The notes beneath the pieces were generated by a model, which made no database searches, was not told the origin of the DNA, and saw nothing but the letters and a program-made list of their open reading frames with translations. Below, in pieces: positions 7,290 to 31,521 of a DNA stretch of 32,000 nucleotides (positions within the stretch are counted from its first letter, which is position 1; every line of letters starts with the position of its first letter). Both the position numbers and the translations under genes were made by a program. Source of the DNA: Nitrososphaera viennensis EN76 (GTDB taxonomy: Archaea > Thermoproteota > Nitrososphaeria > Nitrososphaerales > Nitrososphaeraceae); the NCBI RefSeq assembly GCF_000698785.1, contig NZ_CP007536.1:1890001-1922000 (forward strand), in the 5' to 3' direction.

Positions 7290-7389
7290 CGCTTGCCTTT
7301 GTAAAAGCTGGCCAGGCCGTATTTAGGTGTGGCGGAGCCAGATTCCATCCGATGGAATTTATAACCAACCTGCAATCCTTTTTGCTGAA

Positions 7390-7695: not shown

Positions 7696-7738
7696 AAGAT
7701 AAAAGGGACGTTTTTGCAGTGCTAACAGCGACTACACT

Positions 7739-9148: not shown

Positions 9149-9227
9149 TAGTTTTTCACACTTTGGTGCATCATTGTGGACACTATCACTAATGTGAAGC
9201 AGAGGCGGCAAGTAACAGCAAGCGACG

Positions 9228-17553: not shown

Positions 17554-17968
17554 TCTGCTTCTTTGTCTCCTTCATAAAGGCGTCAAAGATGGACCTGACC
17601 CTGTCGGCAGAAAGGCCCGTTCCTTCCTCCACCCCGGACTGCGTCACCTTTATCTTGTCCATGACGATGATGGCGCCGACGTCCTCGCGGATCTTGACAA
17701 GGCCGGGAAACGCCCTTTCCAGCCTCTCTGCAAGCGCCTTGAAGTCAAACGGCTTTTCCATAAGGCGGATTTCCTTGACAAACGCGCCGTTCAGGATCAC
17801 CTTCAGTATGCCGTGGCCCTCGACGTTGTCAAGCACGATGTCGAGCTTGTCGTCGACGCCGGCAAGCGTCCCGTTGTAAACCTTGCTATCAGAAGTCTCT
17901 ACCGCCACCTTTTTGCCGATGAATTGAAGAGTCTCTTCGCCAAATTTTCTTGTAACAACAGCTGCCAT
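17543..17968 (-). CDS. Sm-like (LSm) domain protein with a C-terminal extension
   Basis: Track ORF 17543..18160. Its first 64 aa are Arg/Trp-rich junk, so the start is placed at MAAVVTRKFGEETLQFIGKKV (ATG at 17966-17968). Sm1/Sm2-like segments are VAVETSDSKVYNGTLAGVDDKLDIVLDNV and VILNGAFVKEIRL. Confidence 0.7.
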   Translation of the reverse strand: MAAVVTRKFGEETLQFIGKKVAVETSDSKVYNGTLAGVDDKLDIVLDNVEGHGILKVILNGAFVKEIRLMEKPFDFKALAERLERAFPGLVKIREDVGAIIVMDKIKVTQSGVEEGTGLSADRVRSIFDAFMKETKKQSGV

Positions 17969-18005
17969 GCCTTTCTCAATTGCTCGGTTGTATATATACG
18001 AATTT

Positions 18006-18221
18006 TTAGGCCAGCAGCGCTTCCAGGCGGTCAAAAGCGCCGTGCCAGCGCTCCTTTGCACGCGCAACGTCCGCGGGCCTGGCAAGCTTGTTCTGCTGCA
18101 CCGCCACCATGCTCTTGCTCTCGTCCTTAGCGTAAAAGTTGGCCTCGACGTTCGTGCCATCCGGCCACGTTATGCGCATCGACTTTTCTTTGTAGCAATT
18201 GGACGAAAGGTGTTGTTGCAT
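18006..18221 (-). CDS. Hypothetical small protein (start uncertain: 18179, 18221 or 18263)
   Basis: Part of track ORF 18006..18263. The ATG at 18219-18221 lies about 27 nt downstream of an aaattat TATA-like element on the minus strand. No family recognised. Confidence 0.3.
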   Translation of the reverse strand: MQQHLSSNCYKEKSMRITWPDGTNVEANFYAKDESKSMVAVQQNKLARPADVARAKERWHGAFDRLEALLA

Positions 18222-18457
18222 AGAGCCGTTTTCTAAGCGTGCATAACTGCATAATTTGAGCATGGCTGCGCATAATTCCTTGCAGCCACATTGTCCTGAG
18301 AAATATCATCATTGCATTCTGCTTTCCAAGAAGATAAAAGAATTAGTTTCACGCAGTATGCTTTACTCCTTATCGATAAAAATAGGGATGAGATTGCATA
18401 TTGGTGATAATATTCTGGAGTTGCTAGTGCACACAAGGTTCTAAATACTAGTCAAGA

Positions 18458-18952
18458 TTGCAGAAAACTGTGCCAAAGAAAGAGCAGATAATAAATCAAT
18501 TCTATGATCAAGCATGGCACATATTAGAACTAATGAAGCAAGGAACTGATGACAATTATGTTATCGAGAAGCAGAAGCTATCTAATATTCTAGACCAATT
18601 GCAGGAGAAAGCAAACAATGCCGATTATATGGATATCTCTGATTTTTTCGTTGCCATTTTATTATATACACAAAAGAATTCAATACCCGAAATCAGTCGA
18701 GACGATCTCATAACTGCTATCGATGAAAGAATTTTTGGAAATCCAAAGAAGTTTCATTTTTACTTTAGACTCGGACGATTATTTGATTTCCCTGAAGGCT
18801 ATCAAGTTGGCTCTGGCAAATTATTCCCCTTCGACAAATTACCTGATTTTGCACAGAAGAACCTCAGTTGGGAATGGAAACATAAGTATAATATGGATCG
18901 ACTATATGCAACAGAAAAACTAACAGAATACAAAAAGCGTAGAAAAAAATGA
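18458..18952 (+). CDS. Hypothetical protein, AT-rich islet ORF 1 (possible N-terminal part of the next gene)
   Basis: 164 aa with a TTG start in the track; the first in-frame ATG is at 18533. It ends at a TGA immediately after an A7 run. No motif recognised. Confidence 0.45.
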   Translation: MQKTVPKKEQIINQFYDQAWHILELMKQGTDDNYVIEKQKLSNILDQLQEKANNADYMDISDFFVAILLYTQKNSIPEISRDDLITAIDERIFGNPKKFHFYFRLGRLFDFPEGYQVGSGKLFPFDKLPDFAQKNLSWEWKHKYNMDRLYATEKLTEYKKRRKK

Positions 18953-18959
18953 ATGGTAC

Positions 18960-19781
18960 ATGTATCTTGAAGTTGAATCTGTTGGTCAGAATAAAGCTAG
19001 GAAGAAGGCGATACTTGAAGCAAGAAGAAATATCAACATCCTGAAGATAGTGTATGATATTCACGGCACTCTTTTCGATCTTCATGCAGAATCCCCTTTT
19101 GATTACATATACCATATGGACAAAAGCAAATCGACCGGCGGGGGTTACAGAAACCATGGCAAAGAGACTATTTTTGTTAGAAGGGACTTCCTAGATCAGA
19201 TGGTCAGTGACATTACAAGTATGAGAATCAATAAACACCCATCCGATTTAGAGAAGAGACTGCTAAATGCTGTGGATATATTTGGATTGGTTGATGATGC
19301 AACCCCTCTACACATCAGATTTCTGCTTTGTATAATTGCTTTAGAGGGCATGCTCTTAGCAGAAGGTGAAAAAGACTATCTCGGATGGAAACTATCAGAG
19401 AAGGTTGCCTTCCTACTGGGAGATACACCTGCGTGGATTGTTACCTTCTATAGGATTCCGCCTGAAGATGTGAGAACGACCTTGACAGATGATTATATAA
19501 ACAAAAAAAGATCCTCCGCTAGAAGTGCGCTCGATAGACAGATGAAAAAGTTCTACGGTAAAAGGTCCGGGTTCGCCCATGGCGGCCTTGAGGCGGATAA
19601 AAGCAAGAAAATAAGCAGCGACGATTACAATATGATTTCATCAATACTAAGATGGACAATCGAAAAACTGATTGAATTGCATAAAAGCGGCATCAACCAT
19701 ATTGCAACTAAAGATAAAGAAAAGATAAGCGAAGATGCTTCATCGTTGGATGCATATATCGAGAAGTTAAGATACTCTTAG
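18960..19781 (+). CDS. HEPN-like domain protein (putative RNase / abortive-infection-type effector)
   Basis: 273 aa. It has an Rx4H motif in a typical HEPN context, KKFYGKRSGFAHGG (R202-H207, nt 19563-19580). That motif is preceded by helical segments LLNAVDIF... and FLLCIIALEGMLL..EKVAFLLGD, resembling Apea/Abi-type HEPN helices. Confidence 0.55.
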   Translation: MYLEVESVGQNKARKKAILEARRNINILKIVYDIHGTLFDLHAESPFDYIYHMDKSKSTGGGYRNHGKETIFVRRDFLDQMVSDITSMRINKHPSDLEKRLLNAVDIFGLVDDATPLHIRFLLCIIALEGMLLAEGEKDYLGWKLSEKVAFLLGDTPAWIVTFYRIPPEDVRTTLTDDYINKKRSSARSALDRQMKKFYGKRSGFAHGGLEADKSKKISSDDYNMISSILRWTIEKLIELHKSGINHIATKDKEKISEDASSLDAYIEKLRYS

Positions 19782-20359
19782 TACGAAAAGTAGCGCTGCA
19801 CCTCTTCCTCCGATATCACTGCAAGCCAGTCGACCGAGCCGGAGCGCCGGGGCCTTTCCTTTTGCACGGTGGCGATTATCTCCTCCGCGGTCTGCTCTGG
19901 TGTTTTTCCAGTAGTGTCAAACTCGGCCACCTTGCGCTTGCCAAACGCCTTTATCGAATCGTAGAGTGAGATGCCGAGTATCTCGGCCGAGACGTTTTCA
20001 TTGACTTTTTCCCGGATGTACTTGCGCTCAAGCAGCGTCTCTTCAAGCTTTCTAGGCGACCTGCGCAGCACGGCGGCCATGTCAATGCCGGCCGATTTTT
20101 TCATGACATATGGAGCAAGATGGCCGACTATCACGAAACTGCCTTTCTTCTTTTTATTTAGTATATTTGCAACTAGCTTGCTGGCCTTTTTCGTGTCGAC
20201 TTCGATCCCCTTGCCCGTCTTTTCCAGCACAGCGCCGTTGTCCAGCGCGACCTTGTTGATGTCGATTATCTCTGCCTTCAGCTCTCTTGCAACAAGCTGC
20301 GCGCTCGTGTGCTTACCCACGCCCGGGTTTCCCGTGATAACCAGCCTGACTGTTTTCAA
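19778..20359 (-). CDS. Fap7/adenylate kinase 6-like nucleoside-triphosphatase
   Basis: 193 aa with the P-loop ITGNPGVGKHT near the N-terminus. Size and layout match archaeal COG1936-type kinases. Confidence 0.75.
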   Translation of the reverse strand: MKTVRLVITGNPGVGKHTSAQLVARELKAEIIDINKVALDNGAVLEKTGKGIEVDTKKASKLVANILNKKKKGSFVIVGHLAPYVMKKSAGIDMAAVLRRSPRKLEETLLERKYIREKVNENVSAEILGISLYDSIKAFGKRKVAEFDTTGKTPEQTAEEIIATVQKERPRRSGSVDWLAVISEEEVQRYFSY

Positions 20360-20445
20360 CCAGCTGCTTTTGCATGCTCTGCGCTATTCTGCTTTTCGCT
20401 CGCTGCCATAGGTTTATCCGATGGAATGTTGCAGTAGGCGCATAT

Positions 20446-20571
20446 ATGAGGATCTGCGAGTCGTGCGGGCGTGTCAGGTTCTACTCGCTCAATTTCCTCT
20501 TTTCAAAGACGGTGTGCAACGAGTGCTACCTGGCAATGAAGGAAAGAGAGAAAGAGAAAAAGCGTCATTGA
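20446..20571 (+). CDS. Small zinc-ribbon protein (41 aa)
   Basis: The internal ATG of track ORF 20374..20571 gives MRICESCGRVRFYSLNFLFSKTVCNECYLAMKEREKEKKRH (CxxC...CxxC). Confidence 0.3.
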   Translation: MRICESCGRVRFYSLNFLFSKTVCNECYLAMKEREKEKKRH

Positions 20572-20984
20572 GCGCTTCCGCATTTCGTGCAGAACTTGGC
20601 ATTTGCCTTGAGCTTTTGCCCGCAGCTGACGCAGAACTTGCTGCTCTCTGGCTCGAGCGTTTCGCGGTTTATTGGCGTAAGCCGCGGCGGGGTCATCTGC
20701 TCGGTGGGAGCTGCCGCTGCCTGTACGTCGCCGTACATGTCCGCAACGGCTCCTGTAGGCTTGAACGAGTCATTCGTGTCCGGCGCAAACTCGGAGTTGC
20801 TTTTCTCGCCTTTTTCCTCGACGTAGAGCATGAGGCGTGGCACCTGTCCCTTGCCCGGTGCGTTCACCTGCTCGCCGAGCCACAGCGCAAATTTTTTCAG
20901 TGTCATCTCGGGCGTGGAAAAGGTGAGCGAGTGCGTGGACATGTACTCGTCGGTTGCAGACCTGCCATTGAAGACCTTGGTCAT
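20565..20984 (-). CDS. Protein with a C-terminal zinc-ribbon (FCxxCG...FCxxCG)
   Basis: 139 aa. The C-terminus is KFCVSCGQKLKANAKFCTKCGSAQ. The N-terminal domain is not recognised. Confidence 0.6.
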   Translation of the reverse strand: MTKVFNGRSATDEYMSTHSLTFSTPEMTLKKFALWLGEQVNAPGKGQVPRLMLYVEEKGEKSNSEFAPDTNDSFKPTGAVADMYGDVQAAAAPTEQMTPPRLTPINRETLEPESSKFCVSCGQKLKANAKFCTKCGSAQ

Positions 20985-21025
20985 AAGGTTGATCGCGCAG
21001 AGTCGCTATTAATATTATATTATTA

Positions 21026-21538
21026 TCATTGCGACTTGCCGCACTTGCTGCAGAACTTGGCATGCTGCGGTATGGACGCCCCGCAGAAAACGCAGCTCTT
21101 TGTATTGCTGCCGCCACTTGCCTTGGGCCTTGGTAGCTCGATGTCCACTGGCTTGAAAGTCGGCTCAGCTTGGGGCGACGGAAGCGTATACCCCGCAGAC
21201 GGTCCTACAGAACCTCCTGCGTTCACAAAGCCGCCGATGCCAAAGCCTGCCTGCTGCGGTGGCGCGGCGGTTGCCACTCCTCCCGTGGGGTTCTTTACCG
21301 ACGTGCCCTTGTCCATCGCGCCCTTGATCTCAAATATGACGCGGATGGCAAGAAAGTTCATCGCAGACGTGGCGACGAGGTAGTCGCCTATCCTTGCGAA
21401 ATACTCTTTTTCGCCCATCTTGCCCTGCTTGTACAGCTGCGTGGCGTCAATGAATGCCTCGTACATGCTCTGCGTGTCGTTTGACAGCTGCTTTAGCTTC
21501 TCGGACAGGCCGCCAAGCGTGTCGACGCCAAAAGACAT
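21026..21538 (-). CDS. Protein with a C-terminal zinc-ribbon, a Gly/Pro-rich linker and an N-terminal helical domain
   Basis: 170 aa. The C-terminus is SCVFCGASIPQHAKFCSKCGKSQ, the same module as the neighbouring gene. Confidence 0.6.
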   Translation of the reverse strand: MSFGVDTLGGLSEKLKQLSNDTQSMYEAFIDATQLYKQGKMGEKEYFARIGDYLVATSAMNFLAIRVIFEIKGAMDKGTSVKNPTGGVATAAPPQQAGFGIGGFVNAGGSVGPSAGYTLPSPQAEPTFKPVDIELPRPKASGGSNTKSCVFCGASIPQHAKFCSKCGKSQ

Positions 21539-21579
21539 TAGAAAAAGAAGGAGTTGCGGGACTTAAAAACGATTCCCGC

Positions 21580-22968
21580 TCAGTATCCGCCGTAGTTGCT
21601 GCGGCCGTACCCGCCGCGCCTTCCGCCGCCATAGCCGCCCCGGCGCTGTCCACCATAACCGCCGCGCCTTCCGCCGCCATAGCCTCCTCCGCGACCGCCG
21701 CCACCGTAGCCCCTATTACCACCATAACCGCCGCCACCGTACCCTCCACCTCCGCCATAGCCGCGGCTTCCATAACCGCCGCCGTATGACTGCCTGTTGC
21801 GGTATCCTCCGCCGCCGTACGAGCGTGGCTGCGCAACAGGAACTGCGATGCCCATCTCGTCGTTGAGCTTGCGTATCGGGAGCGTGGTCTGCGCAAGTAT
21901 GCGCTCCATGTCGGCTATCCTCTCGGCTGACACGAGCGAGATGGCCTTGCCCTCTGCGCCCGCCCTTGCCGTCCTTCCGATCCTGTGGAAGTACACGTTG
22001 GGGTCGTCAGGGATGTCGTAGTTGATGACGTTTCCTACCGCCGGCACGTCGATTCCCCTTGCGGCAATGTCGGTCGCGACAAGGATGTCCTCGGTGCCCT
22101 TGCGGAACTTGAACATCGCCTGGTCGCGCTGCCTCTGCGTGAGGTCGCCGTGGATGGCTATCGCTGAAAAGCCGTCCCTCTTTAGCTGGTGCGCAACCCT
22201 GTCAGCGCGCTGCTTTGTCGCGGCAAACACGATCGTCTGCGCCTTGGCGTCCCTGTTCTTCCTGATAAAGTCGCATAGGTGCCTGAACTTTTCACGCTCC
22301 TCCACCACCAGGTACGACTGCTCTATCGTGTCCAGCGTCACTTCCTCCTCGTTGAGCCTCACGTGCTCTATCTCCTTCATGTACTCCTCTGCCAGCCTGA
22401 GGATCTCTGGCGGCATCGTCGCCGAGAACAAGCAGGTCTGCCTGTCCTCGTTGACGTAGAACAGGATGAACTTGATGTCGTCGATGAATCCCATGTCAAG
22501 CATCCTGTCAGCCTCGTCCATAACGACAAACTTGACGTCGTCAAGGATTATCGAGCCCTGCTTTATGTGGTCGATAAGCCTGCCGGGCGTTGCCACTACT
22601 ATCTGCACGCCCCTCTGCAATTTCTCGTTCTGGATGTTTATGCTCTGTCCGCCGTAGATGGCTACGGTCCTTATTCCCGTGTACTTGGCCAACCGGCTTA
22701 TTTCTGTAGTTACCTGCACCGCCAACTCTCTTGTCGGCACAAGCACCAGCGCCTGGACGGGGCCCTCGTTGCTGACGCGGGCCAGTATGGGCAGTCCAAA
22801 TGCTGCCGTCTTGCCGGTTCCTGTGTGCGCCTGCCCTATGACATCCTTACCCTGCAAAACAAGGGGTATAGCTGCCTCCTGTATAGGAAACGGCGCCTCA
22901 AATCCATTCTCGCTGAGCGCCTTGTTTAATTCCGCGCTCAGACCCAATTCTGCGAACGTCTTCGTCAT
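21580..22968 (-). CDS. DEAD-box ATP-dependent RNA helicase with an RGG/GY-rich C-terminal tail
   Basis: 462 aa. It has a Q motif (FEAPFPIQ), AHTGTGKT, PTRELA, DEAD (VMDEADRMLD), SAT and HRIGRTARAG, followed by an ~80-aa Gly/Arg/Tyr tail. Confidence 0.95.
   Translation of the reverse strand: MTKTFAELGLSAELNKALSENGFEAPFPIQEAAIPLVLQGKDVIGQAHTGTGKTAAFGLPILARVSNEGPVQALVLVPTRELAVQVTTEISRLAKYTGIRTVAIYGGQSINIQNEKLQRGVQIVVATPGRLIDHIKQGSIILDDVKFVVMDEADRMLDMGFIDDIKFILFYVNEDRQTCLFSATMPPEILRLAEEYMKEIEHVRLNEEEVTLDTIEQSYLVVEEREKFRHLCDFIRKNRDAKAQTIVFAATKQRADRVAHQLKRDGFSAIAIHGDLTQRQRDQAMFKFRKGTEDILVATDIAARGIDVPAVGNVINYDIPDDPNVYFHRIGRTARAGAEGKAISLVSAERIADMERILAQTTLPIRKLNDEMGIAVPVAQPRSYGGGGYRNRQSYGGGYGSRGYGGGGGYGGGGYGGNRGYGGGGRGGGYGGGRRGGYGGQRRGGYGGGRRGGYGRSNYGGY
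21583..21822 (-). repeat. Low-complexity coding repeat (GGY/RGG units) forming the helicase tail
   Basis: The protein reads ...GGGRRGGYGGQRRGGYGGGRRGGYG.... At the DNA level, ccgccgcgccttccgccgccatagcc occurs twice about 48 nt apart. Confidence 0.8.
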
Positions 22969-23113
22969 TTTTTATTCTTCACTTTGTTCTCTTTTGTTTT
23001 ATGTTCTTCTTGCGTGTATGCTTTTTTGCCACAAAAGTCGCACGGACGTTTCCGTTTTAAACCGTAAAACCTTTGTCTAGAACTTGTTACCTTTTACAAG
23101 GATATAAGGTTAG

Positions 23114-23121
23114 CTAACGAT
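23114..23121. repeat. Left copy of the 8-bp target-site duplication CTAACGAT
   Basis: It lies immediately outside the left IR and is identical to 26756-26763. Confidence 0.8.
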
Positions 23122-23144
23122 GATACTGTTGCGTCATTTGTGAT
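23122..23144. repeat. Left terminal inverted repeat GATACTGTTGCGTCATTTGTGAT
   Basis: The reverse complement of 26733-26755 is GATACTGTTGCGTAATTTGTGAT, with a single mismatch at position 14. The core ACTGTTGC resembles the IS26 end (GGCACTGTTGCAAA, recalled from memory). Confidence 0.85.
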
Positions 23145-23213
23145 AACCCCCTCTCCCTCAAATGAGCTGGCCATTAAATAGAAGCATATTCTATTCAGAT
23201 TTACCAAAGGGAT

Positions 23214-23744
23214 ATGGGTCGTGAGATGCCACATAATTCGTTAACAATTGCACGTTTCGAGAATGCCGAATTTATCATAGGCAATGGATTGCTTATCATT
23301 GGAGGTTTGATTCTTACTCCCAATACATTCAATGAACTTACTGTAGCTGGAGCGTTAATGATGCTAGGTGGCGTCATCTTGGACATCAGAGTTTTTAATT
23401 TATCCAAACTCGAACGTGATGTTCTATCAAAGAAAATAGAAGTCACCAAGACTCAGCTTGACGATGCTTTAAGAGACATGCAGGAAATGAGGCATTCAAT
23501 TATTGATGCCGAACGTAATCTAAAGCGCGCTATAACAGATATGGATGAACAAGAACAAAAGTTGAAACAACAACAGAAGCAACTTAAGGAAATGGAAAAG
23601 ACTACTTTCTCATTCATATCGAGAGCTCGTTCAGGCAGACCTTTAGAGGATATGCTAAAGGAAGCGTACCAAAGTCTTGACGCTTCTTTGAAATCTGTGG
23701 AAAAGAAACTCGGGATCTGGTCATCCAGAAGGTCTCCTTTCTGA
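23214..23744 (+). CDS. Hypothetical membrane protein with a C-terminal coiled coil (cargo)
   Basis: 176 aa. Two predicted TM helices (FIIGNGLLIIGGLIL; VAGALMMLGGVILDI) are followed by a heptad-like charged region (QLDDALRDMQEMRHSIIDAERNLKRAITDMDEQEQKLKQQQKQLKEMEK). Confidence 0.5.
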   Translation: MGREMPHNSLTIARFENAEFIIGNGLLIIGGLILTPNTFNELTVAGALMMLGGVILDIRVFNLSKLERDVLSKKIEVTKTQLDDALRDMQEMRHSIIDAERNLKRAITDMDEQEQKLKQQQKQLKEMEKTTFSFISRARSGRPLEDMLKEAYQSLDASLKSVEKKLGIWSSRRSPF

Positions 23745-23748
23745 GAGG

Positions 23749-23913
23749 CTACTTGGCAGCCAAATTTTCTTTAATCTTCTTTTCCCAGTCTGCCTGAGTT
23801 ATGACGCCTTTTTCCTCCAGCACATCTGACAGGCTGTCTAGCATAGTATTAAGCATAGAGACCTCTTCTCTAAGGTCATCAATCTCCGCTTCCAAGTTGC
23901 GCTTTTTACTCAT
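23749..23913 (-). CDS. Small coiled-coil protein (54 aa), below the track cutoff
   Basis: Own translation: MSKKRNLEAEIDDLREEVSMLNTMLDSLSDVLEEKGVITQADWEKKIKENLAAK*. Its ATG overlaps the stop of the upstream RHH gene (ATGAGTAA). Confidence 0.45.
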   Translation of the reverse strand: MSKKRNLEAEIDDLREEVSMLNTMLDSLSDVLEEKGVITQADWEKKIKENLAAK

Positions 23914-24064
23914 TCTTGTCTCCCCTCAGGTATCCCTTCTCAGACATCCATGAAGTAACTATCGCCCTAATTATGTCTGACCTGCCCTCTCCCATCGTAC
24001 CTTTCAGGCTATCGACAATCTCCATCAAGTTATCGGGGAGTGTCACTAAAGCCCTCGCCATCAT
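23906..24064 (-). CDS. Ribbon-helix-helix (CopG/Arc-like) DNA-binding protein (52 aa), below the track cutoff
   Basis: Own translation: MMARALVTLPDNLMEIVDSLKGTMGEGRSDIIRAIVTSWMSEKGYLRGDKNE*. It shows a beta-strand (ALVTLPDNL) followed by the GRSDIIRAIV helix pattern typical of RHH. An ATGA overlap with the transposase stop occurs at 24061-24064. Confidence 0.6.
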   Translation of the reverse strand: MMARALVTLPDNLMEIVDSLKGTMGEGRSDIIRAIVTSWMSEKGYLRGDKNE

Positions 24065-24999
24065 GCCTTCACCTCAACAACCTGCTCTTCAGGCTTTCGT
24101 TCGCCGCCATGCTCCAACGCCTGATCCTGAGTCGCCTTGTCTATCAGCTCTGACCAGCCGTTAGTTATCTGGATGCCTGCCGCCTGCGCGGGTGTTTTCT
24201 TTATCGTTTGGTGCTTTCTGACATAGTTGTAATTTACAACGTAGCCGTCAAGCAGTATCTTAGATGCCTTTTCGTTCTTTAGTCCACGCATAGGACGCAG
24301 CCTGTCTTTCAACGTTCCATGTACACGCTCTACGACGTTGTTGGTTGTCCTTGCCTGAATGCCAACACGCTTGACAAGCTCGACGCGGTTAGCCTTGTAC
24401 CTGCTGTAGTAGACCTTGTTGAACGCTCTGTCATAGCTGTTGCTACCATCCACAAAGATTACTTTTGGCCTTTCTTTTGTTATCCTGTTTGCACTTTCAA
24501 ATATCTTCATTGTCTCTTCGATTGTGCGCTCGCCGCCTAGGTGTGAGCCAACTAGGAATTTTGTCTCTTCGTCTATCATTTCCCAGAACCAGACGTTTCT
24601 ACCCTCGCACTTTATCATGGTTTCATCTTCGTGCCACTTGCCTGATGTCTCTGGGTTCATCTTCTCTTCGCAGAACTTGCTGACTAGAGCAGAGTACTTG
24701 ACAATCCAGCGATAGATTGTCGAAGAGTCAACTTTTTCTCCCATCAATTGCGCAAGCTGGTTCTGCACCTTTCGGACTGACAGGCCATCGAAATATAGGT
24801 TAAGGGCTGCAACAATGACGTGCTTCTTTACCTTCATCTTGCTAGGCTGTCCGTTGTTGTAAAAGCGGTGTGAGCAGTTTCTGCACCTGTAGACCTGCTG
24901 GCCGTGTACCTTGCCGTCTTTTACTACCTTGTAGGACATGCAATATTTGCATCGGACATTTTCGCTTTGTTCTGTCGTGCTTGCGGTTGTGTTGCTCAC
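24061..24999 (-). CDS. IS6-family (IS240-type DDE) transposase with an N-terminal zinc finger
   Basis: 312 aa with a GTG start. It has the zinc finger CKYC...CRNCSHRF. The DDE-region pattern is WHEDETMIKCEGRNVWFWEMIDEETKFLVGSHLGGERT ... FVDGSNSYDRAF ... NNVVERVHGTLKDRLRPMRG. Confidence 0.85.
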   Translation of the reverse strand: MSNTTASTTEQSENVRCKYCMSYKVVKDGKVHGQQVYRCRNCSHRFYNNGQPSKMKVKKHVIVAALNLYFDGLSVRKVQNQLAQLMGEKVDSSTIYRWIVKYSALVSKFCEEKMNPETSGKWHEDETMIKCEGRNVWFWEMIDEETKFLVGSHLGGERTIEETMKIFESANRITKERPKVIFVDGSNSYDRAFNKVYYSRYKANRVELVKRVGIQARTTNNVVERVHGTLKDRLRPMRGLKNEKASKILLDGYVVNYNYVRKHQTIKKTPAQAAGIQITNGWSELIDKATQDQALEHGGERKPEEQVVEVKA

Positions 25000-25000
25000 G

Positions 25001-25089
25001 TATATCCATATGCATATACCTTATATATACTTATATCCATATGGATATATCATGGATGTATTTGCAAATTACAATTGCATATATTTATC
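25001..25089. promoter_or_regulatory. Divergent promoter/operator region dense in palindromes
   Basis: The 12-mer TATATCCATATG is repeated at 25001 and 25032. There is a perfect 18-bp palindrome TATATCCATATGGATATA (25032-25049) and a 10-bp palindrome ATATGCATAT (25008-25017). TATA-like ttatatatac (25021-25030) lies 22-31 nt upstream of the transposase GTG, and catatatttatc (25078-25089) lies about 30 nt upstream of the ATG at 25116. Confidence 0.55.
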
Positions 25090-25115
25090 AGGAGGTAGAT
25101 TCAATTAATTTTATC

Positions 25116-25322
25116 ATGTCATTGACGCACAAACCAAATCCATTTGGACAAATCTTGTGCTGGTCTGGCAGACATTTAATCAGTGAAGAAGATGAACAAG
25201 AATTAATCGATTCTCCGACTGGCAGGTATGAAACAATGTGCGACCGATGCCATCGGAAGATTATTTTGGAAATCGACCCAGAAAATGAAGATGAATACTT
25301 TATCAAAGAACCAAACGATTAG
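25116..25322 (+). CDS. Small acidic Cys/His protein (68 aa) (cargo)
   Basis: The internal ATG of track ORF 24870..25322 gives MSLTHKPNPFGQILCWSGRHLISEEDEQELIDSPTGRYETMCDRCHRKIILEIDPENEDEYFIKEPND. C-x4-H ... CxxCH could bind metal. Confidence 0.4.
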   Translation: MSLTHKPNPFGQILCWSGRHLISEEDEQELIDSPTGRYETMCDRCHRKIILEIDPENEDEYFIKEPND

Positions 25323-26053
25323 CCGTTTTTCTCTTTCTCTTTTGGCAAGTCTGAAAATGGTATGTCTACCTTTGCGTTAGCTTTTGCTTTCATTTTTTTA
25401 GGCTTTGGCAATTTGCCTTTGACAGGCCACTTGATCCCTCTATAGAAGAATACGAGCGCGAATGTGTATATGATAAATGTGAAATCAAAATGTGTCTTAT
25501 TCCAAGGCGGAGTGGTGGGATATGGATTGTCCCAAAATGAAAGTTGGTATTGATAAAGGAACGAGAATGCAATGAATAGAGCAAAGAATGTTGCGGTTAT
25601 TATCATTCTGCGTACTCTGATTTTGTGCTCTTCCCTCTCTTCTTCCCGATATTCCAAAATTTTCAGTATGTCCCATAGCAAATACAACCCGAACATGATC
25701 GGAAGAATCCACTGAAAAATATCGCCAAAATGACCTTTGCTTTCGGGGTTGGCTACACTTACTATGTAGTACGTGAGAAATACTACAACTAGGTCAACAA
25801 CAAACCGCGCATTACCCAACTTGCCTTTATGCGGATTTTTGGTAATTGAGCGATGATATCCTATCCACCCAGATACAACAATAAAGTAAACCATTAACAT
25901 CCCCGACGCATCGATAAATGAGCGATAATCAGAAAGCACGTTGCTAAACGGTATGAAAATATGATCGACCTGCACGAAGCTCTGACCTATTATCACTGCA
26001 ACCATAATCTCGAGGAAATTCCTGTAAAATTCGCTGAGTTTCTTATAGTGCAA
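25319..26053 (-). CDS. Hypothetical polytopic membrane protein (cargo)
   Basis: 244 aa with about 6 hydrophobic helices and a Lys-rich C-terminal tail. No family recognised. Confidence 0.55.
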   Translation of the reverse strand: MHYKKLSEFYRNFLEIMVAVIIGQSFVQVDHIFIPFSNVLSDYRSFIDASGMLMVYFIVVSGWIGYHRSITKNPHKGKLGNARFVVDLVVVFLTYYIVSVANPESKGHFGDIFQWILPIMFGLYLLWDILKILEYREEEREEHKIRVRRMIITATFFALFIAFSFLYQYQLSFWDNPYPTTPPWNKTHFDFTFIIYTFALVFFYRGIKWPVKGKLPKPKKMKAKANAKVDIPFSDLPKEKEKNG

Positions 26054-26824: not shown

Positions 26825-27262
26825 ATGCCTGCCGGGCAGGGCAACGAGGACGATGACGACGAGGAGATCGTCACCCTGGCGGTGAACAGGAGGACGATGG
26901 GGGTTATCCGGGACTTTGCTGCAGGCCAGGGCCTCGACGCCAGGATGGTGGACTCGAAGGACAGCAAGAACGTGGTGTCGATGGTGGTGAGGCACGACGG
27001 CGGGGAGCACTTTTCCTTCTTTTGCGCCCGGTGCTTTAGCCACTTTTTCAACCTGCTAACGCTAAAGAGGGTCTCTGTGGAGCACGACCCGTCCACCATA
27101 TTCATCAGGCTGGAGCTGGCAACCGACGAGGTGGACGGCATGAAGCACTACCTCGACGAGGTGCTCGAGGAGATAAAGAGCAGCAAGAGCAGGAAAGAAG
27201 AAGAAGAAGCAGCAGCTGCTGCTCCTCCGGCAATGCGCAACAACGCGGACCGGGGAAAGTAA
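26825..27262 (+). CDS. Hypothetical acidic protein
   Basis: The track ORF starts at GTG 26816; the ATG at 26825 gives MPAGQGNEDDDDEE.... It has a central FFCARCFSHFF segment and a Glu/Ala-rich tail. No family recognised. Confidence 0.45.
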   Translation: MPAGQGNEDDDDEEIVTLAVNRRTMGVIRDFAAGQGLDARMVDSKDSKNVVSMVVRHDGGEHFSFFCARCFSHFFNLLTLKRVSVEHDPSTIFIRLELATDEVDGMKHYLDEVLEEIKSSKSRKEEEEAAAAAPPAMRNNADRGK

Positions 27263-27451
27263 ATGGAGAAGGGGCGGCAGCGGCCAGCAATTTGCGCAAT
27301 GTGCGGAAAGGCCATGGCGTACCCTGCTGCTGCAGCGGTGATAGAGACGCTTGACGGGCTGGACTATGCCTTTGATTCCCGGGACTGCGCGCTCTTGTTC
27401 AAAAAGTTCACGAGCCTGTACGGCAAGGACTTCTTTTTCGTCAAGGTTTAG
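27263..27451 (+). CDS. Small Cys-containing protein, degenerate TRASH/YHS-like
   Basis: 62 aa with ICAMCGK...DYAFDSRDCALLFKKF. This resembles the CxxC...(F)Cxx(x)C..F TRASH/YHS layout, with one Cys replaced by Asp. Its ATG directly follows the upstream TAA. Confidence 0.4.
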   Translation: MEKGRQRPAICAMCGKAMAYPAAAAVIETLDGLDYAFDSRDCALLFKKFTSLYGKDFFFVKV

Positions 27452-27463: not shown

Positions 27464-28948
27464 CTAGCTAGCAAGCCTTGCGGGCACTTTGGGGTTGCCA
27501 AAGTCCGCGCCCGATGCCGAGTACACCTTGATCGCCTGCCCGTGCTTGATCGTAAATTTCGGGCTCACCAGCTTTATTGTCGCCCTGTACTCGTCTTTCA
27601 GGTTTATCAGCTGCTCTGCCAGGCTGTCTGCCAGGAGTATGTGCCTGTCGTCGCCGATGTCCATCACCCTGCGCGCAAGGATGATGCCGGGGCCCCACAC
27701 GTTCTGGTTGCCGTTGATGTCGGACACCACGAACACCGGGCCTGCGCTCAGCCCTATCCTGACGCCGATGGCCTCCCCGGCGCCGGCGGCGCCCCTGTTA
27801 AAAACGCCCAGCTTGCGGTGCAGCTGCATGCTCAGCTGCAGGGGAAGCTCGGGGTTCATCAGAAAGCCGATGGCCATCCCGTCCCCGGTGGGGAGGATTA
27901 TCCTCTTGTCCCTTGGCGCCTTTGCAACAGCGTCGCAGGAGCTGATGAGCCTGTTGAGGTTCTCTATCTTTTTGATCTGCTTTTCCACTGACAGCGAAGG
28001 GTCCGAAAGCCCGACGATGTCTATGAAGAAAAAGCTGGCGTTTACGACGCCGACGGGAATGGCGGCAGGGTGGATCACGCTTGAGCCGTAAATGTCGCTC
28101 AGCTTCCTGTACGTTTCAAGGCAGTGCGGGTGGAACGGGGCGTCTTCTGCGTCATAAGCCACCTTGCCCGCGATAGGCTTGTCGCACAGCTTGCATATTG
28201 TCATCGCCAGCTCTGCCTGTTCCTGTTCATCCTGCCCAAACGCCAGGGAGCCTTCTTGTGTTATCGAGAACCTTGCCCAGACGGGGTTGTGGTACGTCCC
28301 CCTGACTGCAAGCAGCCGCAGGCTCCTTGCAAGCTCTTTTCCCTCGTCCTCAAGCTTTATCTGCAGCGTGCCGTCCAAGAGCGACGCGACGGTGTCAGAC
28401 AGGTCCCTTGAAGGCGTGGTCGTGAGCGTGACTACTGCCATTGCGCCAGCGTTTCTCAAAGCACTGGCAAGCCCTGCGACAAACTCTAGCACCTCGCTTT
28501 CTGAAAAGTGGGGGAGGAGGTGGGTGATAGAGTCGACAGCGACTCTTGCCGGCGCGCCGGAAGAAGCAGCAACAGAGCCGCGCACCTGCTCCAGCAGGAC
28601 CGCCGCTGCGCCGGCCGGATCCTTTGCTTTTTTTCCGCTCCTGGCAGAGGAAGAGGAGGCGGCGATAGTAGTGGTGGTGGGCGCAACAAACAGCACTACT
28701 TCCGCCTCCTGGCTCCCAACCAGTCTTTTGAATTTCTCCTCGGAAAAGAGCGGGTCGAGGCTGACATACACGCAGCGCTCCCCTGCCGCAATCCCGTCGC
28801 GCAGAAACTGCATGCAGTACATAGTCTTGCCCGAGCCGGCAGGCCCGGTGAGCAAAAAGGCTCCCCGTGGGAGCGCGCCCTTGAAAAAAACGTGGCGCCG
28901 GCCGGGGATCACTTCTTTTTTTTCTTCATCGTGCACGGATTTGACCAA
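27464..28948 (-). CDS. Fusion protein: KaiC/RecA-like ATPase + LIM-like zinc finger + class III nucleotidyl (adenylate/guanylate) cyclase domain
   Basis: 494 aa with a TTG start (uncertain). The N-terminal part is GALPRGAFLLTGPAGSGKTMYCMQFL (Walker A) plus RVAVDSIT (Walker B-like). The middle has C252-x2-C-x17-H-x2-C276 (CKLCDKP...FHPHC). The C-terminal part has FFFIDIVGLS, LPTGDGMAIGF, VRIGLSAGPVFV and GPGIILARRV, the cyclase-homology-domain pattern. Confidence 0.75.
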   Translation of the reverse strand: MVKSVHDEEKKEVIPGRRHVFFKGALPRGAFLLTGPAGSGKTMYCMQFLRDGIAAGERCVYVSLDPLFSEEKFKRLVGSQEAEVVLFVAPTTTTIAASSSSARSGKKAKDPAGAAAVLLEQVRGSVAASSGAPARVAVDSITHLLPHFSESEVLEFVAGLASALRNAGAMAVVTLTTTPSRDLSDTVASLLDGTLQIKLEDEGKELARSLRLLAVRGTYHNPVWARFSITQEGSLAFGQDEQEQAELAMTICKLCDKPIAGKVAYDAEDAPFHPHCLETYRKLSDIYGSSVIHPAAIPVGVVNASFFFIDIVGLSDPSLSVEKQIKKIENLNRLISSCDAVAKAPRDKRIILPTGDGMAIGFLMNPELPLQLSMQLHRKLGVFNRGAAGAGEAIGVRIGLSAGPVFVVSDINGNQNVWGPGIILARRVMDIGDDRHILLADSLAEQLINLKDEYRATIKLVSPKFTIKHGQAIKVYSASGADFGNPKVPARLAS

Positions 28949-29005: not shown

Positions 29006-29881
29006 TTAAACTTTGATCTGCATGGCCTCGATGAGCCTTTCCACCTGCTTTGTGAACGGGTGGCCCGGCTGCACAAGGGCAGTCAGGAACTCCTTCCTGC
29101 TGAACTGTATGTCGCAATAGCACGGTATCGAGGAAATGACTTCCATGCCCGTCTTGCCGGCAAGCACGCCGGCAATGTCTGCGCTCCCTTCTTCAATCAT
29201 CGTCATCCTACCGGCACTGCTGCCCGCAAAACGGGCTTCGGGCACGCAGTAGCCTGCCACCCTGTTCAGCAGCAGGAACGACCTCGTGCCGTACTTTGTC
29301 AGCGAGCTGTATATCTCGGAGGCGAGCTTGTTCGTGCCCTCGATGTCAATGTCGCCCATCTTCAGGGTGAGAAAGAGCGCGTCGGCCACGGCAAGCGCGT
29401 TGATGGACCAGTACCGTATGCCGGGGCTGGTGTCGATTATGATGTAATCCGGGCCGTAGTTGGAGATGAGCTGCTCGCGCAAGAGTATGAACCTGCGCAG
29501 TTGCGACTTTGACGATTCAACCGTGCTGCTGTCCAGCTTGTAGACCTCCTCCTTTCGCATGCTGCAAAAGCCGATCCACAGCTTTCCGCCGTCCCTCATG
29601 ACGTTCTTTATATCATTATCATGTTTCCGGGTGTATTCGCGGACAGTCTCCGTGACGTCGGTCATGACGTCTTCCACTGCTGCGTCGCCGAGGAGGTAGT
29701 CGTTGAGCCACTTTTCTGGCTCGCTTCCAAAATAGGTGTAGAGGCTTGGCGCATAGACGTCAAGGTCAAGGAGCGCCACCTTGAAGCCTTTTTTTGCCAA
29801 GAGCGCGGCGCAGTTTGCGGCGATGGTCGTCTTGCCAGTGCCCCCCTTGTAAGAATGAAAGGCGACGCACTTGGTGGCCAT
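29006..29881 (-). CDS. ParA/MinD-family P-loop ATPase
   Basis: 291 aa. It has the deviant Walker A VAFHSYKGGTGKTTIAANCA and the Walker B-like YIIIDTSPG. Confidence 0.8.
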   Translation of the reverse strand: MATKCVAFHSYKGGTGKTTIAANCAALLAKKGFKVALLDLDVYAPSLYTYFGSEPEKWLNDYLLGDAAVEDVMTDVTETVREYTRKHDNDIKNVMRDGGKLWIGFCSMRKEEVYKLDSSTVESSKSQLRRFILLREQLISNYGPDYIIIDTSPGIRYWSINALAVADALFLTLKMGDIDIEGTNKLASEIYSSLTKYGTRSFLLLNRVAGYCVPEARFAGSSAGRMTMIEEGSADIAGVLAGKTGMEVISSIPCYCDIQFSRKEFLTALVQPGHPFTKQVERLIEAMQIKV

Positions 29882-29979: not shown

Positions 29980-30312
29980 ATGACCGACCCGGACGCCCGG
30001 CGCCTCTTGTGGTTCCTCTTTGCCGGCTCCCGGGGCGGCGAAAACCGGATCAAGATCATAGGCCTCTTGAAGGAAAGGCCGTACAACACGAACCAGCTTG
30101 CAGAGGCGATGGGCCTCGACTACAAGGCCATCCAGCACCACATACACGTGCTGGAGAAAAACAACATGGTCACAAGGGCAGGCGAAAAGTACGGCGTGCT
30201 TTACTTCATATCGCCGTACCTTGAGCACAACATCGGCGCGTTTGACGAGGTCAGGGCAGCCATCGACAAGAAAATGGGAAGCAGTAGCAATAAAAGATCT
30301 GGAAAAAAGTAA
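29980..30312 (+). CDS. ArsR-family winged-helix transcriptional regulator
   Basis: The internal ATG of track ORF 29794..30312 gives MTDPDARRLLWFLFAGSRGGENRIKIIGLLKERPYNTNQLAEAMGLDYKAIQHHIHVLEKNNMV. This is the HTH pattern of ArsR/SmtB-like proteins. Confidence 0.75.
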   Translation: MTDPDARRLLWFLFAGSRGGENRIKIIGLLKERPYNTNQLAEAMGLDYKAIQHHIHVLEKNNMVTRAGEKYGVLYFISPYLEHNIGAFDEVRAAIDKKMGSSSNKRSGKK

Positions 30313-30352
30313 ATAAGATGAATCGGTTGCGCTTCAATGTAGTAACAACGCT

Positions 30353-30643
30353 ATGGCAATGCTGATGGACGTTAGCGCGGCTGTGAGCCTGGTAAACATC
30401 GGGATACTGGCCGTGCTCCTTGCCATGTACGGGCGCATATACCGCAACACGAGGGCGGTGTTCACGCTCGGCCTCATGTTCTTTGCAGGCATGCTTGTCC
30501 TCCACAACGCCATAGCGGTCTATGGATACTTTGCGATGGCCCCACTCTATGCCGAGGCGCTCCTGCCGTACTTCGTGGGCGTGCACATTGCGGAACTTGC
30601 CGGCATCGCCACGCTCCTGAAGGTCACGCTCAGGCCGCTCTGA
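30353..30643 (+). CDS. Small three-TM membrane protein
   Basis: 96 aa with three hydrophobic helices. It lies directly downstream of the ArsR-like gene. Confidence 0.5.
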   Translation: MAMLMDVSAAVSLVNIGILAVLLAMYGRIYRNTRAVFTLGLMFFAGMLVLHNAIAVYGYFAMAPLYAEALLPYFVGVHIAELAGIATLLKVTLRPL

Positions 30644-30711
30644 CTGGTAATCTGGTGCAGATCTGGAAAAAAGTATATCAGCAAAATCTGCAAAGCACCG
30701 CATGAATTAGT

Positions 30712-31521
30712 GTGGTAGTAGAGACAAGCGTGCTTGTATCCGCGCTTGCAGGCGCAGGTTCGTTCTTTTCGCCGTGCATACTTCCAATACTGCCGGCGTT
30801 CATTTCGTACCTTTCTGGCACGACTCTATCGGAGGTGCAGAACCAGAATCGGGACCAAGGTCAGGGTCAGCAGGCATCAGCTGCCGGTGGCGGCTCATCA
30901 TCGTCATCATCAGTCACGTTAAAGCGCTCTACGCGCCTCAACATCTTTCTCAACACCGTGTATTTCGTGCTGGGCTTTTCGCTCGTTTTTGCGGTGCTCG
31001 GCGTCATTTTTAATTCGGTGCTTGCCGGCGCTGGCGCAGGCTTTCAGGGCACGCTGCAGGCAGCCGGCGGCATAGTGATCATCGTTTTTGGAGCCTACCT
31101 CATACTCTCCACAAAGATTGCAAAACTCAATTTTGAAAAGCGCATGACAAACCTCCCGAAATTCAAGACCAGCTACATCACTTCGTTTGTCTTTGGGGCG
31201 GCGTTTGCGTCGGGGTGGACGCCGTGCGTCGGGCCTATCCTTGGAAGCACGCTTGCCCTTGCCGCAACTTCGCCGGGGGCCGCGTACAATTCGCTCCTTG
31301 CTTATGCCATCGGCCTTGGCGTGCCGTTTCTGATAACGGGCGCGTTCTTTTCGCAGGCGACCGGCGTCATCCGCAGGATGGTCAGGCACCTGAAGTATTT
31401 CAACCTGATAATGGGAGGCGTGCTCATCCTGCTGGGCATACTGGTGTTCACCAACCAGCTGGCAGCCATTGCCAACTTTCCGCTTGCCGACCAGATAATC
31501 AACCTGGAGAGGGGGATTTGA
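30712..31521 (+). CDS. ccdA: CcdA/DsbD-family thiol:disulfide electron-transfer membrane protein
   Basis: 269 aa with a GTG start. It has FFSPCILPILPAF and GWTPCVGPILG, the two conserved Cys-Pro motifs. A low-complexity Gln/Gly/Ser insert follows TM1. Confidence 0.8.
   Translation: MVVETSVLVSALAGAGSFFSPCILPILPAFISYLSGTTLSEVQNQNRDQGQGQQASAAGGGSSSSSSVTLKRSTRLNIFLNTVYFVLGFSLVFAVLGVIFNSVLAGAGAGFQGTLQAAGGIVIIVFGAYLILSTKIAKLNFEKRMTNLPKFKTSYITSFVFGAAFASGWTPCVGPILGSTLALAATSPGAAYNSLLAYAIGLGVPFLITGAFFSQATGVIRRMVRHLKYFNLIMGGVLILLGILVFTNQLAAIANFPLADQIINLERGI

Follow-up and report, generated by a model that had tools for sequence, protein, structure and literature searches.

A KaiC-like ATPase module, a zinc finger, and a class III cyclase homology domain are fused in a conserved Nitrososphaeraceae gene linked to a ParA/MinD-like ATPase

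The window analyzed here, a 32,000-nucleotide stretch of DNA from Nitrososphaera viennensis EN76, contains on its minus strand an open reading frame (27464..28948) that encodes 494 residues when begun at a TTG codon. The public annotation starts at the GTG at 28936, four codons downstream, to give 490 residues, and the stop codon occupies positions 27464-27466; a database match returned a public protein 100% identical to the fusion product. The reading frame, Pfam searches, and homologues identified, in order, a single-domain KaiC/ArlH-like P-loop module, one C2HC treble-clef finger, and a class III cyclase homology domain (CHD); the three-part reading of a first-pass annotation of this DNA was borne out by Pfam, by a profile search of the PDB, and by AlphaFold/Foldseek analysis. 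The motifs it had quoted are all present: GPAGSGKT (residues 35-42) and RVAVDS (135-140) in the first part, C252-x2-C255-x17-H273-x2-C276 in the second, and FIDIVGLS (308-315), TGDGMAIGF (354-362), VRIGLSAGPVFV (396-407), and GPGIILARRV (419-428) in the third. The three parts are found uninterrupted and in identical arrangement in over 75 full-length homologues from other genomes. Because this continuous architecture recurs, the fusion is not a frameshift artifact, and the alternative of two genes was excluded. Within a family of 75 members, mean pairwise identity was 66% for the cyclase domain, 45% for the finger, and 37% for the KaiC-like module. The predicted model of the full-length protein left the domain-domain geometry uncertain (pTM of 0.52).

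The KaiC/ArlH-like module (residues 21-233; 28250..28888, minus strand) was assigned a RecA fold from Pfam, PDB, and Foldseek matches. Pfam KaiC (PF06745) matched residues 21-233 with an E-value of 2.8e-20, phmmer aligned the module with KaiC sequences of the PDB at E about 1e-14, and Foldseek returned FlaH/ArlH (4yds) as the best match, with KaiC next. The Walker A lysine (K41; motif at 28823-28846) occurs in all 73 aligned members, two further rows being gapped, and the Walker B aspartate (D139; RVAVDS at 28529-28546) occurs in 72 of 75 (96%). The catalytic glutamate pair that follows strand 2 was absent according to the KaiC alignment and the residue statistics of the 75 members; the equivalents of KaiC E77/E78 are Asp65-Pro66 in the fusion, and the family shows S, T, N, D, or C there with no conservation. 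With both Walker motifs retained but the catalytic glutamates missing, the module resembles ArlH more than a clock protein. Its designation as an inactivated KaiC ("iKaiC") in the strict sense was rejected, since both Walker motifs are intact. A Thr/Ser/Ala-rich insert (residues ∼88-133; 28550..28687, minus strand), delimited by length variation and low model confidence, differs in length by clade, between about 0 and about 100 residues, and the predicted model has a pLDDT below 50 at residues 103-111 within it.

Single-domain archaeal KaiC-like ATPases, including ArlH/FlaH, were reportedly proposed as signaling hubs by Makarova, Galperin and Koonin in 2017. The fusion and ArlH/FlaH have in common one RecA/KaiC-type domain that bears both Walker motifs and lacks the catalytic glutamates, whereas the fusion adds a C-terminal finger and cyclase, does not lie in an archaellum operon, and is paired with a ParA/MinD-like gene. 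The joining of this module to signaling domains fits the hub concept (PMC5847659), and ArlH binds ATP without hydrolysis, with autophosphorylation altering its hexamer state (PMC8978795).

A clock-like role had also been suggested at first, according to which a KaiC-like phosphorylation cycle would drive rhythmic cyclic-nucleotide output. KaiC is the best-scoring sequence family, and phmmer places Ser189, which precedes the conserved Asp192 by three residues, opposite KaiC T432; however, this serine, a candidate phosphosite, is kept in only 46 of the 75 members. The P-loop domain is homologous to that of cyanobacterial KaiC, but the fusion possesses one such domain and no CI-CII tandem, lacks the E77/E78-type glutamates, has another output, and scored 58.9 against a cut-off of 408 for the NCBIfam KaiC equivalog; no KaiA/KaiB-like genes occur among its neighbors. 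We regard a timer as very improbable.

The treble-clef finger (C252, C255, H273, and C276) and its helix CLETYRKLSDIYG (residues 252-288; 28085..28195, minus strand) were defined by conservation and by the predicted model, which shows beta-hairpins followed by the helix. It sits immediately N-terminal to the CHD, a place taken in other cyclases by a helical transducer element. Two of the ligands, C252 and C255, are invariant; the third (273) is H or D, and the fourth (276) is C or shifts to H, giving a family pattern of C-x2-C...F-[H/D]-x2-3-[C/H]. The earlier label "LIM-like" describes a pattern resemblance only. With its C-x2-C-x17-H-x2-C spacing the finger matches the first LIM half, but Pfam LIM scored 15 bits in the whole protein and 19.8 bits with the isolated finger (cut-off, 22.9), the match covers only profile positions 1-27 of 58, and one finger with varying ligands stands against the LIM double finger of about 55 residues; the LIM assignment was thus rejected. 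Matches to YHS and TRASH, found in paralogues and some orthologues, were weak and sub-threshold (E of 5e-4 to 0.05), with His or Asp as the third ligand; the paralogues also gave weak treble-clef matches. The F-D-S-x-x-C-x3-F-K-K segment of the finger paralogues resembles the F-C-S-x-x-C pattern of TRASH/YHS, for which the membership pattern is C-x2-C-x19-22-C-x3-C, and all matches to LIM, TRASH, and YHS fall below the Pfam thresholds. The fusion differs from LIM, TRASH, and YHS alike in having one finger with a ligand identity that changes by clade.

The CHD (residues 303-480; 27509..28042, minus strand) is of a subtype found in ammonia-oxidizing archaea (AOA) and was identified by Pfam, a PDB profile search, and AlphaFold/Foldseek. 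Its match to Pfam Guanylate_cyc (PF00211, residues 303-448) was marginal, at 22.1 bits versus a cut-off of 21.9, and many orthologues of the fusion have precomputed PF00211 matches. A family profile searched against PDB sequences retrieved class III cyclases only, with Ma1120 the best (E of 1e-5). The AlphaFold model of residues 245-494 had a pLDDT of 85.4, and the top 50 PDB matches returned by Foldseek for this model were all class III adenylyl or guanylyl cyclases (E of 4e-11 to 4e-9, the lowest being 3.7e-11), with TM values, normalized to the target, of 0.63-0.81 for stand-alone catalytic domains. The profile and the predicted structure independently support the cyclase-homology fold that had been proposed for this region.

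The two metal-binding aspartates noted in the first-pass annotation, D310 (codon 28019-28021) and D356 (27881-27883), align with D256 and D300 of Rv1625c and are present in 75 of 75 members. Invariant residues in the family comprise D310, D356, R397, N416, R426, R427, D430, K468, and H469; the phosphate binders R397 (RIG motif) and R427 (A-x-R motif) were equated by alignment, and K468 is the putative phosphate-binding Lys of the beta7-beta8 region, judged by position. The CHD therefore has in common with canonical class III cyclases (Rv1625c, CyaC, Ma1120, sGC, and RhGC) the fold (TM up to 0.81), the two metal-binding Asp, the Arg/Arg/Lys set, and the RIG-x-x-GP and G-x-x-x-x-x-A-x-R motifs, but it differs from them in Leu for Lys and Ile for the transition-state Asn. 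Leu352 takes the place of the substrate Lys (Ile351 under another gap placement) and the invariant Asn416 that of the substrate Asp, so that neither base-specifying pair, Lys/Asp (adenylyl) or Glu/Cys-Ser (guanylyl), is present in the CHD. The transition-state Asn, four residues before the Arg, is replaced by Ile423 (71 Ile and 4 Val in the 75 members); of 126 wider relatives, 61 have Ile at this position and 46 have the canonical Asn. The non-canonical Leu352/Asn416/Ile423 site had gone unnoticed in the first-pass annotation.

Mutagenesis of mammalian and mycobacterial enzymes indicates that changes of the ribose/transition-state Asn or the substrate Lys strongly reduce cAMP/cGMP synthesis by canonical cyclases, and inactive CHDs with regulatory roles exist, such as the C1/C2 pseudo-symmetric site of mammalian cyclases. 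The loss of the substrate Lys (Leu352) and the transition-state Asn (Ile423), a Pfam match only at threshold, and the lack of a cNMP receptor gene in the conserved neighborhood are points in favor of a pseudo-cyclase or sensor, a CHD that would make no cyclic nucleotide and would instead bind NTP-metal or dimerize, and so regulate or scaffold the KaiC-like and ParA-like ATPases. Against this reading, both metal-binding Asp and three phosphate-binding basic residues are 100% invariant within the most conserved part of the protein, and such invariance exceeds the needs of a dimerization scaffold. The strong constraint on the CHD, in which no metal- or phosphate-binding position has been lost, speaks against decay of the domain. 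Rv0386, with Asn at the substrate Asp position, is active, which also counts against a pseudo-cyclase. So does the free exchangeability of the base-reading residues in Pycsar cyclases (PMC11224242). On balance, we consider a catalytically silent CHD improbable, if worth keeping in view.

The closest sequence relatives of the CHD belong to a pan-AOA family of ∼400-aa proteins named "adenylate/guanylate cyclase domain-containing protein" (E of 1e-71 to 1e-50), which occurs in Nitrosopumilus, Nitrosarchaeum, Nitrosotalea, and Nitrososphaera. With such a sister family, class III-type CHDs are not rare in the AOA lineage, contrary to the initial impression that class III cyclases are uncommon in archaea. 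In this family (e.g., in Nitrosopumilus cobalaminigenes) the cyclase domain is N-terminal and precedes a ∼200-aa domain with no assignment; the KaiC-like module and the finger are missing, and the family is spread across AOA genera, whereas the fusion was found in Nitrososphaeraceae-type genomes only. The ∼400-aa proteins share D310, L352, D356, R397, N416, I423, R426, R427, K468, and H469 with the fusion, I423 being found in 120 of 120 members, and the L352/N416/I423 signature, common to both, is a subfamily trait. Other relatives of the CHD occur in fusions with Ser/Thr kinases or with STAND-TPR and FHA modules, a typical signaling wiring. Rv0386, in which Asn replaces the substrate Asp, is likewise joined to a P-loop ATPase; that ATPase is a C-terminal STAND domain, in contrast to the N-terminal KaiC/RecA-type ATPase of the fusion.

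A phyletic survey, within the reach of the scan, detected the fusion only in genomes labeled as Nitrososphaeraceae or relatives and in two oddly labeled soil MAGs. At least 80 species-level genomes, all from one family, carry it; synteny is conserved and identity is 37-83%, a family-wide pattern that argues for vertical inheritance and against a mobile defense island. For the domain combination, which was not recognized at first, a search of the accessible literature on the fusion and on AOA cyclases yielded no study; Makarova et al. 2017 (mBio 8:e01959-17) may list the architecture.

A gene for a 291-aa ParA/MinD-like ATPase (29006..29881, minus strand) lies 70 bp upstream of the fusion on the same strand. 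Its product was identified by Pfam (AAA_31, CbiA, ParA, and MipZ, with AAA_31, CbiA, and MipZ above cut-offs), NCBIfam, and PDB matches to Soj and MinD. The protein has a deviant Walker A (KGGTGKT) with conserved HSYKGGTGKTT and IIDTSPG motifs, and Cys212, Cys254, and Cys256 are invariant. By tblastn, the ParA-like gene adjoins the fusion in 62 of 80 loci, and it lies within 1.5 kb in 43 of the 55 loci with enough flanking sequence; a paralogous clade of the fusion, about seven loci, is without this neighbor. On the plus strand, convergent with the fusion, is a gene called in public assemblies for a 62-aa stand-alone finger plus helix (27263..27451), with the pattern CxxCG...YxFDSxxCxxxFKKFxxLYGxxF and weak YHS/TRASH matches. 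Comparison of this protein with the profile of the internal finger by hhalign gave a probability of 97.3% (E of 2.2e-11), which shows the two to be homologous, and the finger paralogue lies within 3 kb of the fusion in 20 of 55 loci. A receiver-domain (REC) gene is near the fusion in 17 of 55 loci, its adjacency being kept in three different gene orders. The first-pass annotation had not noticed any of these three partner genes. An IS element and low-GC DNA are situated 2.5 kb from the fusion, and its other neighbors are regulators and housekeeping genes.

The proposal that the protein is a defense component was weighed as a Pycsar-type system, in which infection would elicit a cyclic-nucleotide alarm that activates a toxic effector. 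Such a system would be in keeping with the nearby IS element and low-GC DNA and with the altered base-reading residues, which are non-canonical as in the class III-like pyrimidine cyclases (PycC); in addition, one Pycsar clade (clade D) carries a zinc ribbon that is required for activity (PMC11224242). The zinc motif of the fusion, however, differs in position and pattern, PADLOC returned P-loop-level noise only, with no PycC, CBASS, or effector match, no TIR, TM, or CNBD effector is adjacent, and the conserved neighborhood encodes no cNMP-binding effector. The gene is chromosomal, with a pattern of vertical inheritance. Like the clock reading, the defense reading was unsupported, and we regard it as very improbable.

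With the architecture, fold, residue conservation, phyletic range, and gene linkage of the fusion established, the best explanation in our judgment, to which we give an even chance, is an enzyme that makes a nucleotide second messenger under the control of an ATP-dependent oligomeric switch and operates with a ParA-like partner; the first-pass view of a plausible signaling enzyme is upheld as plausible. We infer three parts of this explanation: that the CHD is catalytic, that oligomer state gates it, and what the partners do. Weighing against it are the Leu352 and Ile423 replacements, the Pfam score at threshold, the uncertain domain-domain geometry, the lack of a cNMP-binding effector in the conserved neighborhood, and the paralogous clade that lacks the ParA-like neighbor. 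The single N-terminal KaiC-type module would act as an ArlH-like, ATP-binding oligomeric switch, tethered to the CHD by the zinc finger and helix. In class III cyclases, which function as dimers, the active sites lie at the interface, and two copies of the CHD are predicted to pair head-to-tail to build such sites. ATP binding, possibly with autophosphorylation, would set the assembly state of the KaiC-like ring, this state would determine whether adjacent cyclase domains dimerize, and the dimers would convert NTP into a nucleotide second messenger; with Leu/Asn instead of Lys/Asp as base-reading residues, the sequence does not predict the base of the NTP. The ParA/MinD-like ATPase, presumed to be co-transcribed, may be an obligate partner that provides input, scaffold, or target, and the 62-aa finger paralogue or the receiver-domain protein may serve as an accessory modulator. 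More tentatively, and with well under an even chance, the AOA-type CHD may be active with a product or specificity other than cAMP/cGMP, and the fusion may define a new three-component archaeal second-messenger system. In such a system the KaiC-like ring would gate by ATP or phosphorylation state, the ParA/MinD-like ATPase would be a dedicated input or positioning partner, and the free finger copy would act as a decoy that tunes cyclase pairing.

Ammonia-oxidizing archaea are globally important nitrifiers. They possess a conserved class III CHD subtype with an unusual residue signature, and in soil Nitrososphaeraceae one copy of the CHD is built into a protein with a KaiC-like ATP switch, its gene being linked to that of a ParA-like ATPase. 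According to a review from 2023, cAMP occurs in archaea, no protein making, degrading, or binding it has been characterized, and the CYTH proteins that carry the label "class IV cyclases" do not belong to the cyclases (PMC10249747). The fusion is an expressible candidate, from a cultured organism, for the makers of archaeal cyclic nucleotides, and it would help to decide whether class III-type enzymes make cyclic nucleotides in archaea, which product the Leu/Asn/Ile site yields, and how a KaiC-hub signal passes to enzymatic output. If the three-component reading is true, the protein would be the first defined archaeal cyclic-nucleotide synthase and would directly link the KaiC hub network to nucleotide signaling.

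Several further genes flank the conserved set. A 145-aa gene (26825..27262, plus strand) directly upstream of the 62-aa finger gene gave no domain match and is conserved in the closest relative only; from its sequence distribution it is probably outside the module. TrmB-like and SCO4226-like genes were rejected as module parts, being found in subsets of loci only and having no homologue in the window. Divergent from the ParA-like gene is a gene for a 110-aa ArsR/HTH_5 regulator (29980..30312, plus strand), identified by domain search. The operon it heads, with genes for DUF8036, a DsbD-like protein, and a thioredoxin-like protein, was likewise rejected as a module part, being kept in a subset of loci only; the arrangement is conserved in close relatives alone.

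The fusion gene (minus strand, 27464-28948) is an ORF of 494 codons, on which our residue numbers are based; the public annotation starts it four codons further downstream, at a GTG (28936), giving 490 aa. An NCBI protein was 100% identical to the product, and the next relative, from Candidatus Nitrososphaera evergladensis, was 83% identical. All motifs quoted in the first-pass annotation were present with the residue numbers it gave. Pfam assigned residues 21-233 to KaiC (PF06745, E 2.8e-20) and residues 303-448 to Guanylate_cyc (PF00211), the latter barely over its cut-off (22.1 vs 21.9 bits). In PDB sequence searches the protein matched KaiC at ∼1e-14 and nucleotide cyclases at ∼1e-3, and a profile of 20 family C-termini matched class III cyclases exclusively (best, Ma1120, 1e-5). 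The full-length AlphaFold model (pLDDT 77.5) yielded FlaH/ArlH (4yds) as first structural match, followed by KaiC. For the model of residues 245-494 (pLDDT 85.4, pTM 0.75), the Foldseek PDB top 50 consisted only of class III adenylyl/guanylyl cyclases (E 4e-11 to 4e-9), with target-normalised TM values of 0.63-0.81 for stand-alone catalytic domains. Because the Pfam, PDB profile, and AlphaFold/Foldseek results all point to class III cyclases, residues ∼300-450 are assigned a cyclase fold, as first proposed from the motifs.

We located the active-site residues by HMMER alignments to Rv1625c, the Catenaria rhodopsin-cyclase, and Ma1120. The metal-binding aspartates of Rv1625c (D256 and D300) aligned with D310 and D356, the very pair suggested in the first-pass annotation, the RIG-motif Arg with R397, and the transition-state Arg (R376) with R427. 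The substrate Lys (K296) corresponded to Leu352 or, with one gap placed differently, to Ile351, the substrate Asp (D365) to Asn416, and the transition-state Asn (N372) to Ile423. Among 75 full-length family members, D310, D356, R397, N416, R426, R427, D430, K468, and H469 were invariant, L352 was kept in 72, and position 423 was Ile in 71 members, with Val in the other 4. The cyclase domain had the highest mean pairwise identity of the protein (66%, compared to 45% for the finger and 37% for the KaiC-like module). The missing canonical Lys and Asn would suit a pseudo-cyclase or sensor, but the metal and phosphate ligands are invariant, which argues against that role. Since the deviating residues are near-fixed within the best-conserved part of the protein, they represent a selected signature (Leu352, Asn416, Ile423) rather than decay. 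The product of such a cyclase cannot be predicted; in Pycsar cyclases the base-reading residues are exchangeable within this fold (PMC11224242).

An exhaustive search of 1.84 billion representatives with the cyclase-domain profile returned 3826 relatives at E<=1e-3, of which 263 reached E<=1e-30. The finger was present in just 23 of the 149 top representatives aligning to the profile. The next-best matches (1e-71 to 1e-50) were ∼400-aa proteins with an N-terminal cyclase domain, named "adenylate/guanylate cyclase domain-containing protein" by NCBI and known from Nitrosopumilus, Nitrosarchaeum, Nitrosotalea, and Nitrososphaera; other relatives were fused to Ser/Thr kinase, STAND/NB-ARC, TPR, or FHA modules. 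The ∼400-aa family shares the Leu/Asn/Ile signature, with Ile423 in 120/120 members, and in the broader subfamily this position was Ile in 61/126 and the canonical Asn in 46/126. Class III cyclases had initially been thought uncommon in archaea, yet the genera of the ∼400-aa family and the matching signature show that ammonia-oxidising archaea commonly carry class III-type domains and that the fusion gene took up a subtype native to this lineage. The ∼400-aa proteins (P0147 and P0280-P0398, encoded outside the window) form an uncharacterised family, whose C-terminal ∼200-aa domain lacked any Pfam match.

In the KaiC-like module, the Walker A Lys41 was present in all aligned family members and the Walker B Asp139 in 72/75, and the KaiC arginine-finger position was Lys or Arg in 61/75. 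A clock role, also raised in the first-pass annotation, is at odds with the single KaiC-type domain (there is no CI-CII tandem), the missing catalytic Glu pair, and the lack of Kai partners among the neighboring genes: Asp65-Pro66 align with KaiC E77/E78, and the family has no conserved acid there (S/T/N/D/C). The protein also scored far under the cut-offs of the NCBIfam KaiC equivalogs. The closest functional analogue is ArlH, which binds ATP without hydrolysis and alters its hexamer state upon autophosphorylation (PMC8978795). From the alignment, a conserved phosphosite is not established because the Ser equivalent to KaiC T432 occurred in only 46/75 members. The Thr/Ser/Ala-rich stretch is an insert of variable length and low model confidence.

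The finger was originally described as LIM-like, a label that was not borne out, as it scored 15 bits in the whole protein, under the LIM threshold of Pfam; the isolated finger reached 19.8 bits (cut-off 22.9) and covered just half of the profile. The first two ligands, C252 and C255, are invariant; His or Asp serves as the third and Cys, or His in other clades, as the fourth (C-x2-C...F-[H/D]-x2-3-[C/H]). The predicted structure places beta-hairpins before a helix in a treble-clef arrangement. A 62-aa ORF just downstream on the opposite strand (27263-27451, plus), which public assemblies annotate as a gene, belongs to a family that matched the internal finger and following helix by hhalign (probability 97.3%, E 2.2e-11), and its members showed weak YHS/TRASH matches.

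Class III cyclases require head-to-tail dimers, KaiC-like modules form rings according to nucleotide and phosphorylation state, and the zinc finger and helix hold the place of the helical transducer of other cyclases. Foldseek alignments of the residue 245-494 model to photoactivated cyclases spanned ∼230-245 columns, longer than the catalytic core, in line with such a position. On the basis of these dimer, ring, and transducer properties, we propose a scheme in which the N-terminal module, through its ATP or phosphorylation state, would control pairing of the cyclase domains and thereby production of a nucleotide messenger; a ParA-like ATPase may be a dedicated partner, and the free finger protein or a single-domain receiver (REC) protein a modulator.

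The gene for this ParA/MinD-like protein (29006-29881) lies 70 bp upstream of the fusion gene, also on the minus strand. When prokaryotes were scanned with one genome per species, 131 relatives were recovered, with two copies in some genomes; 78 of the best 80 loci carried Nitrososphaera, Nitrosocosmicus, Nitrosopolaris, Nitrososphaeraceae, Nitrososphaerales, or Thermoproteota labels, and the two oddly labelled loci, from soil MAGs, are probably binning errors. The ParA/MinD-like gene adjoined the fusion gene in 62/80 loci and was within 1.5 kb in 43 of the 55 with enough flanking sequence. In most cases it was upstream in the same orientation, although distant clades had it divergent or downstream; one paralogous clade lacked it as a neighbor. 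The ParA/MinD-like protein has a deviant Walker A motif. Three of its cysteines do not vary among 58 orthologues (from loci L001-L080): C212 in GYCxP, directly past the adenine-binding Asn, and C254 and C256 in IPCxCDIQF. Together they may make up a metal or redox site close to the nucleotide pocket. Within 3 kb of the fusion gene, the finger paralogue occurred in 20/55 loci and a REC gene in 17/55. The earlier suggestion of a defence component, now framed as a Pycsar-like role for this cyclase fusion, is disfavored by the absence of a PADLOC match and of an adjacent effector and by the vertical inheritance of the gene.

Several further neighbors were observed. REC adjoins the pair of ParA and fusion genes under three distinct gene orders (loci L060, L067, L066, L075, L050, L053, and others), and a TrmB_C/PLD-like 350-aa gene (within 4 kb) and an SCO4226-like 88-aa gene accompany the fusion gene in 20 and 16 loci, respectively; the window holds no homologue of any of the three. 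Divergent from the ParA-like gene is an operon (29980-31521, plus) for ArsR/HTH_5 (110 aa), DUF8036 (96 aa), and a DsbD-like membrane protein, continuing just outside the window with a thioredoxin/AhpC-TSA protein; its placement beside the module is kept only in close relatives.

Taken separately, the archaeal KaiC-like signalling ATPase, class III cyclase domain, and ParA/MinD ATPase are known kinds. Some orthologues are auto-annotated [quoted passage not shown], and class III cyclases are listed among Nitrososphaeraceae-specific clusters (PMC13577086). The literature searched, to which a 2017 KaiC-hub paper did not belong, held no description of the fusion, its partners, or the Leu/Asn/Ile signature. 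The protein matters as a candidate from a cultivable nitrifier, while archaea so far lack a characterised cyclic-nucleotide synthase (PMC10249747).

Elsewhere in the window, a DDE transposase (DDE_Tnp_IS240 domain in Pfam; 24061-24999, minus) lies 2.5 kb from the fusion gene in a low-GC stretch (within 23000-26000; GC 0.38-0.48 vs ∼0.55 elsewhere), adjoined by a 244-aa membrane protein of no clear family (25319-26053). A second low-GC stretch (18001-20000, GC 0.40-0.44), whose ORFs 18458-18952 and 18960-19781 had no Pfam match, may be acquired DNA. A 530-aa ORF (11127-12719, minus) gave partial Tli3 (T6SS immunity) and BNR-repeat matches. Positions 857-11038 and 15420-22968 hold ordinary housekeeping genes, including those for FMN reductase, pirin, cytidylyltransferase, MetRS, SAH hydrolase, CysRS, beta-CASP RNase, endonuclease V, archaeosine-type TGT, an Lsm-like protein, and a DEAD-box helicase.
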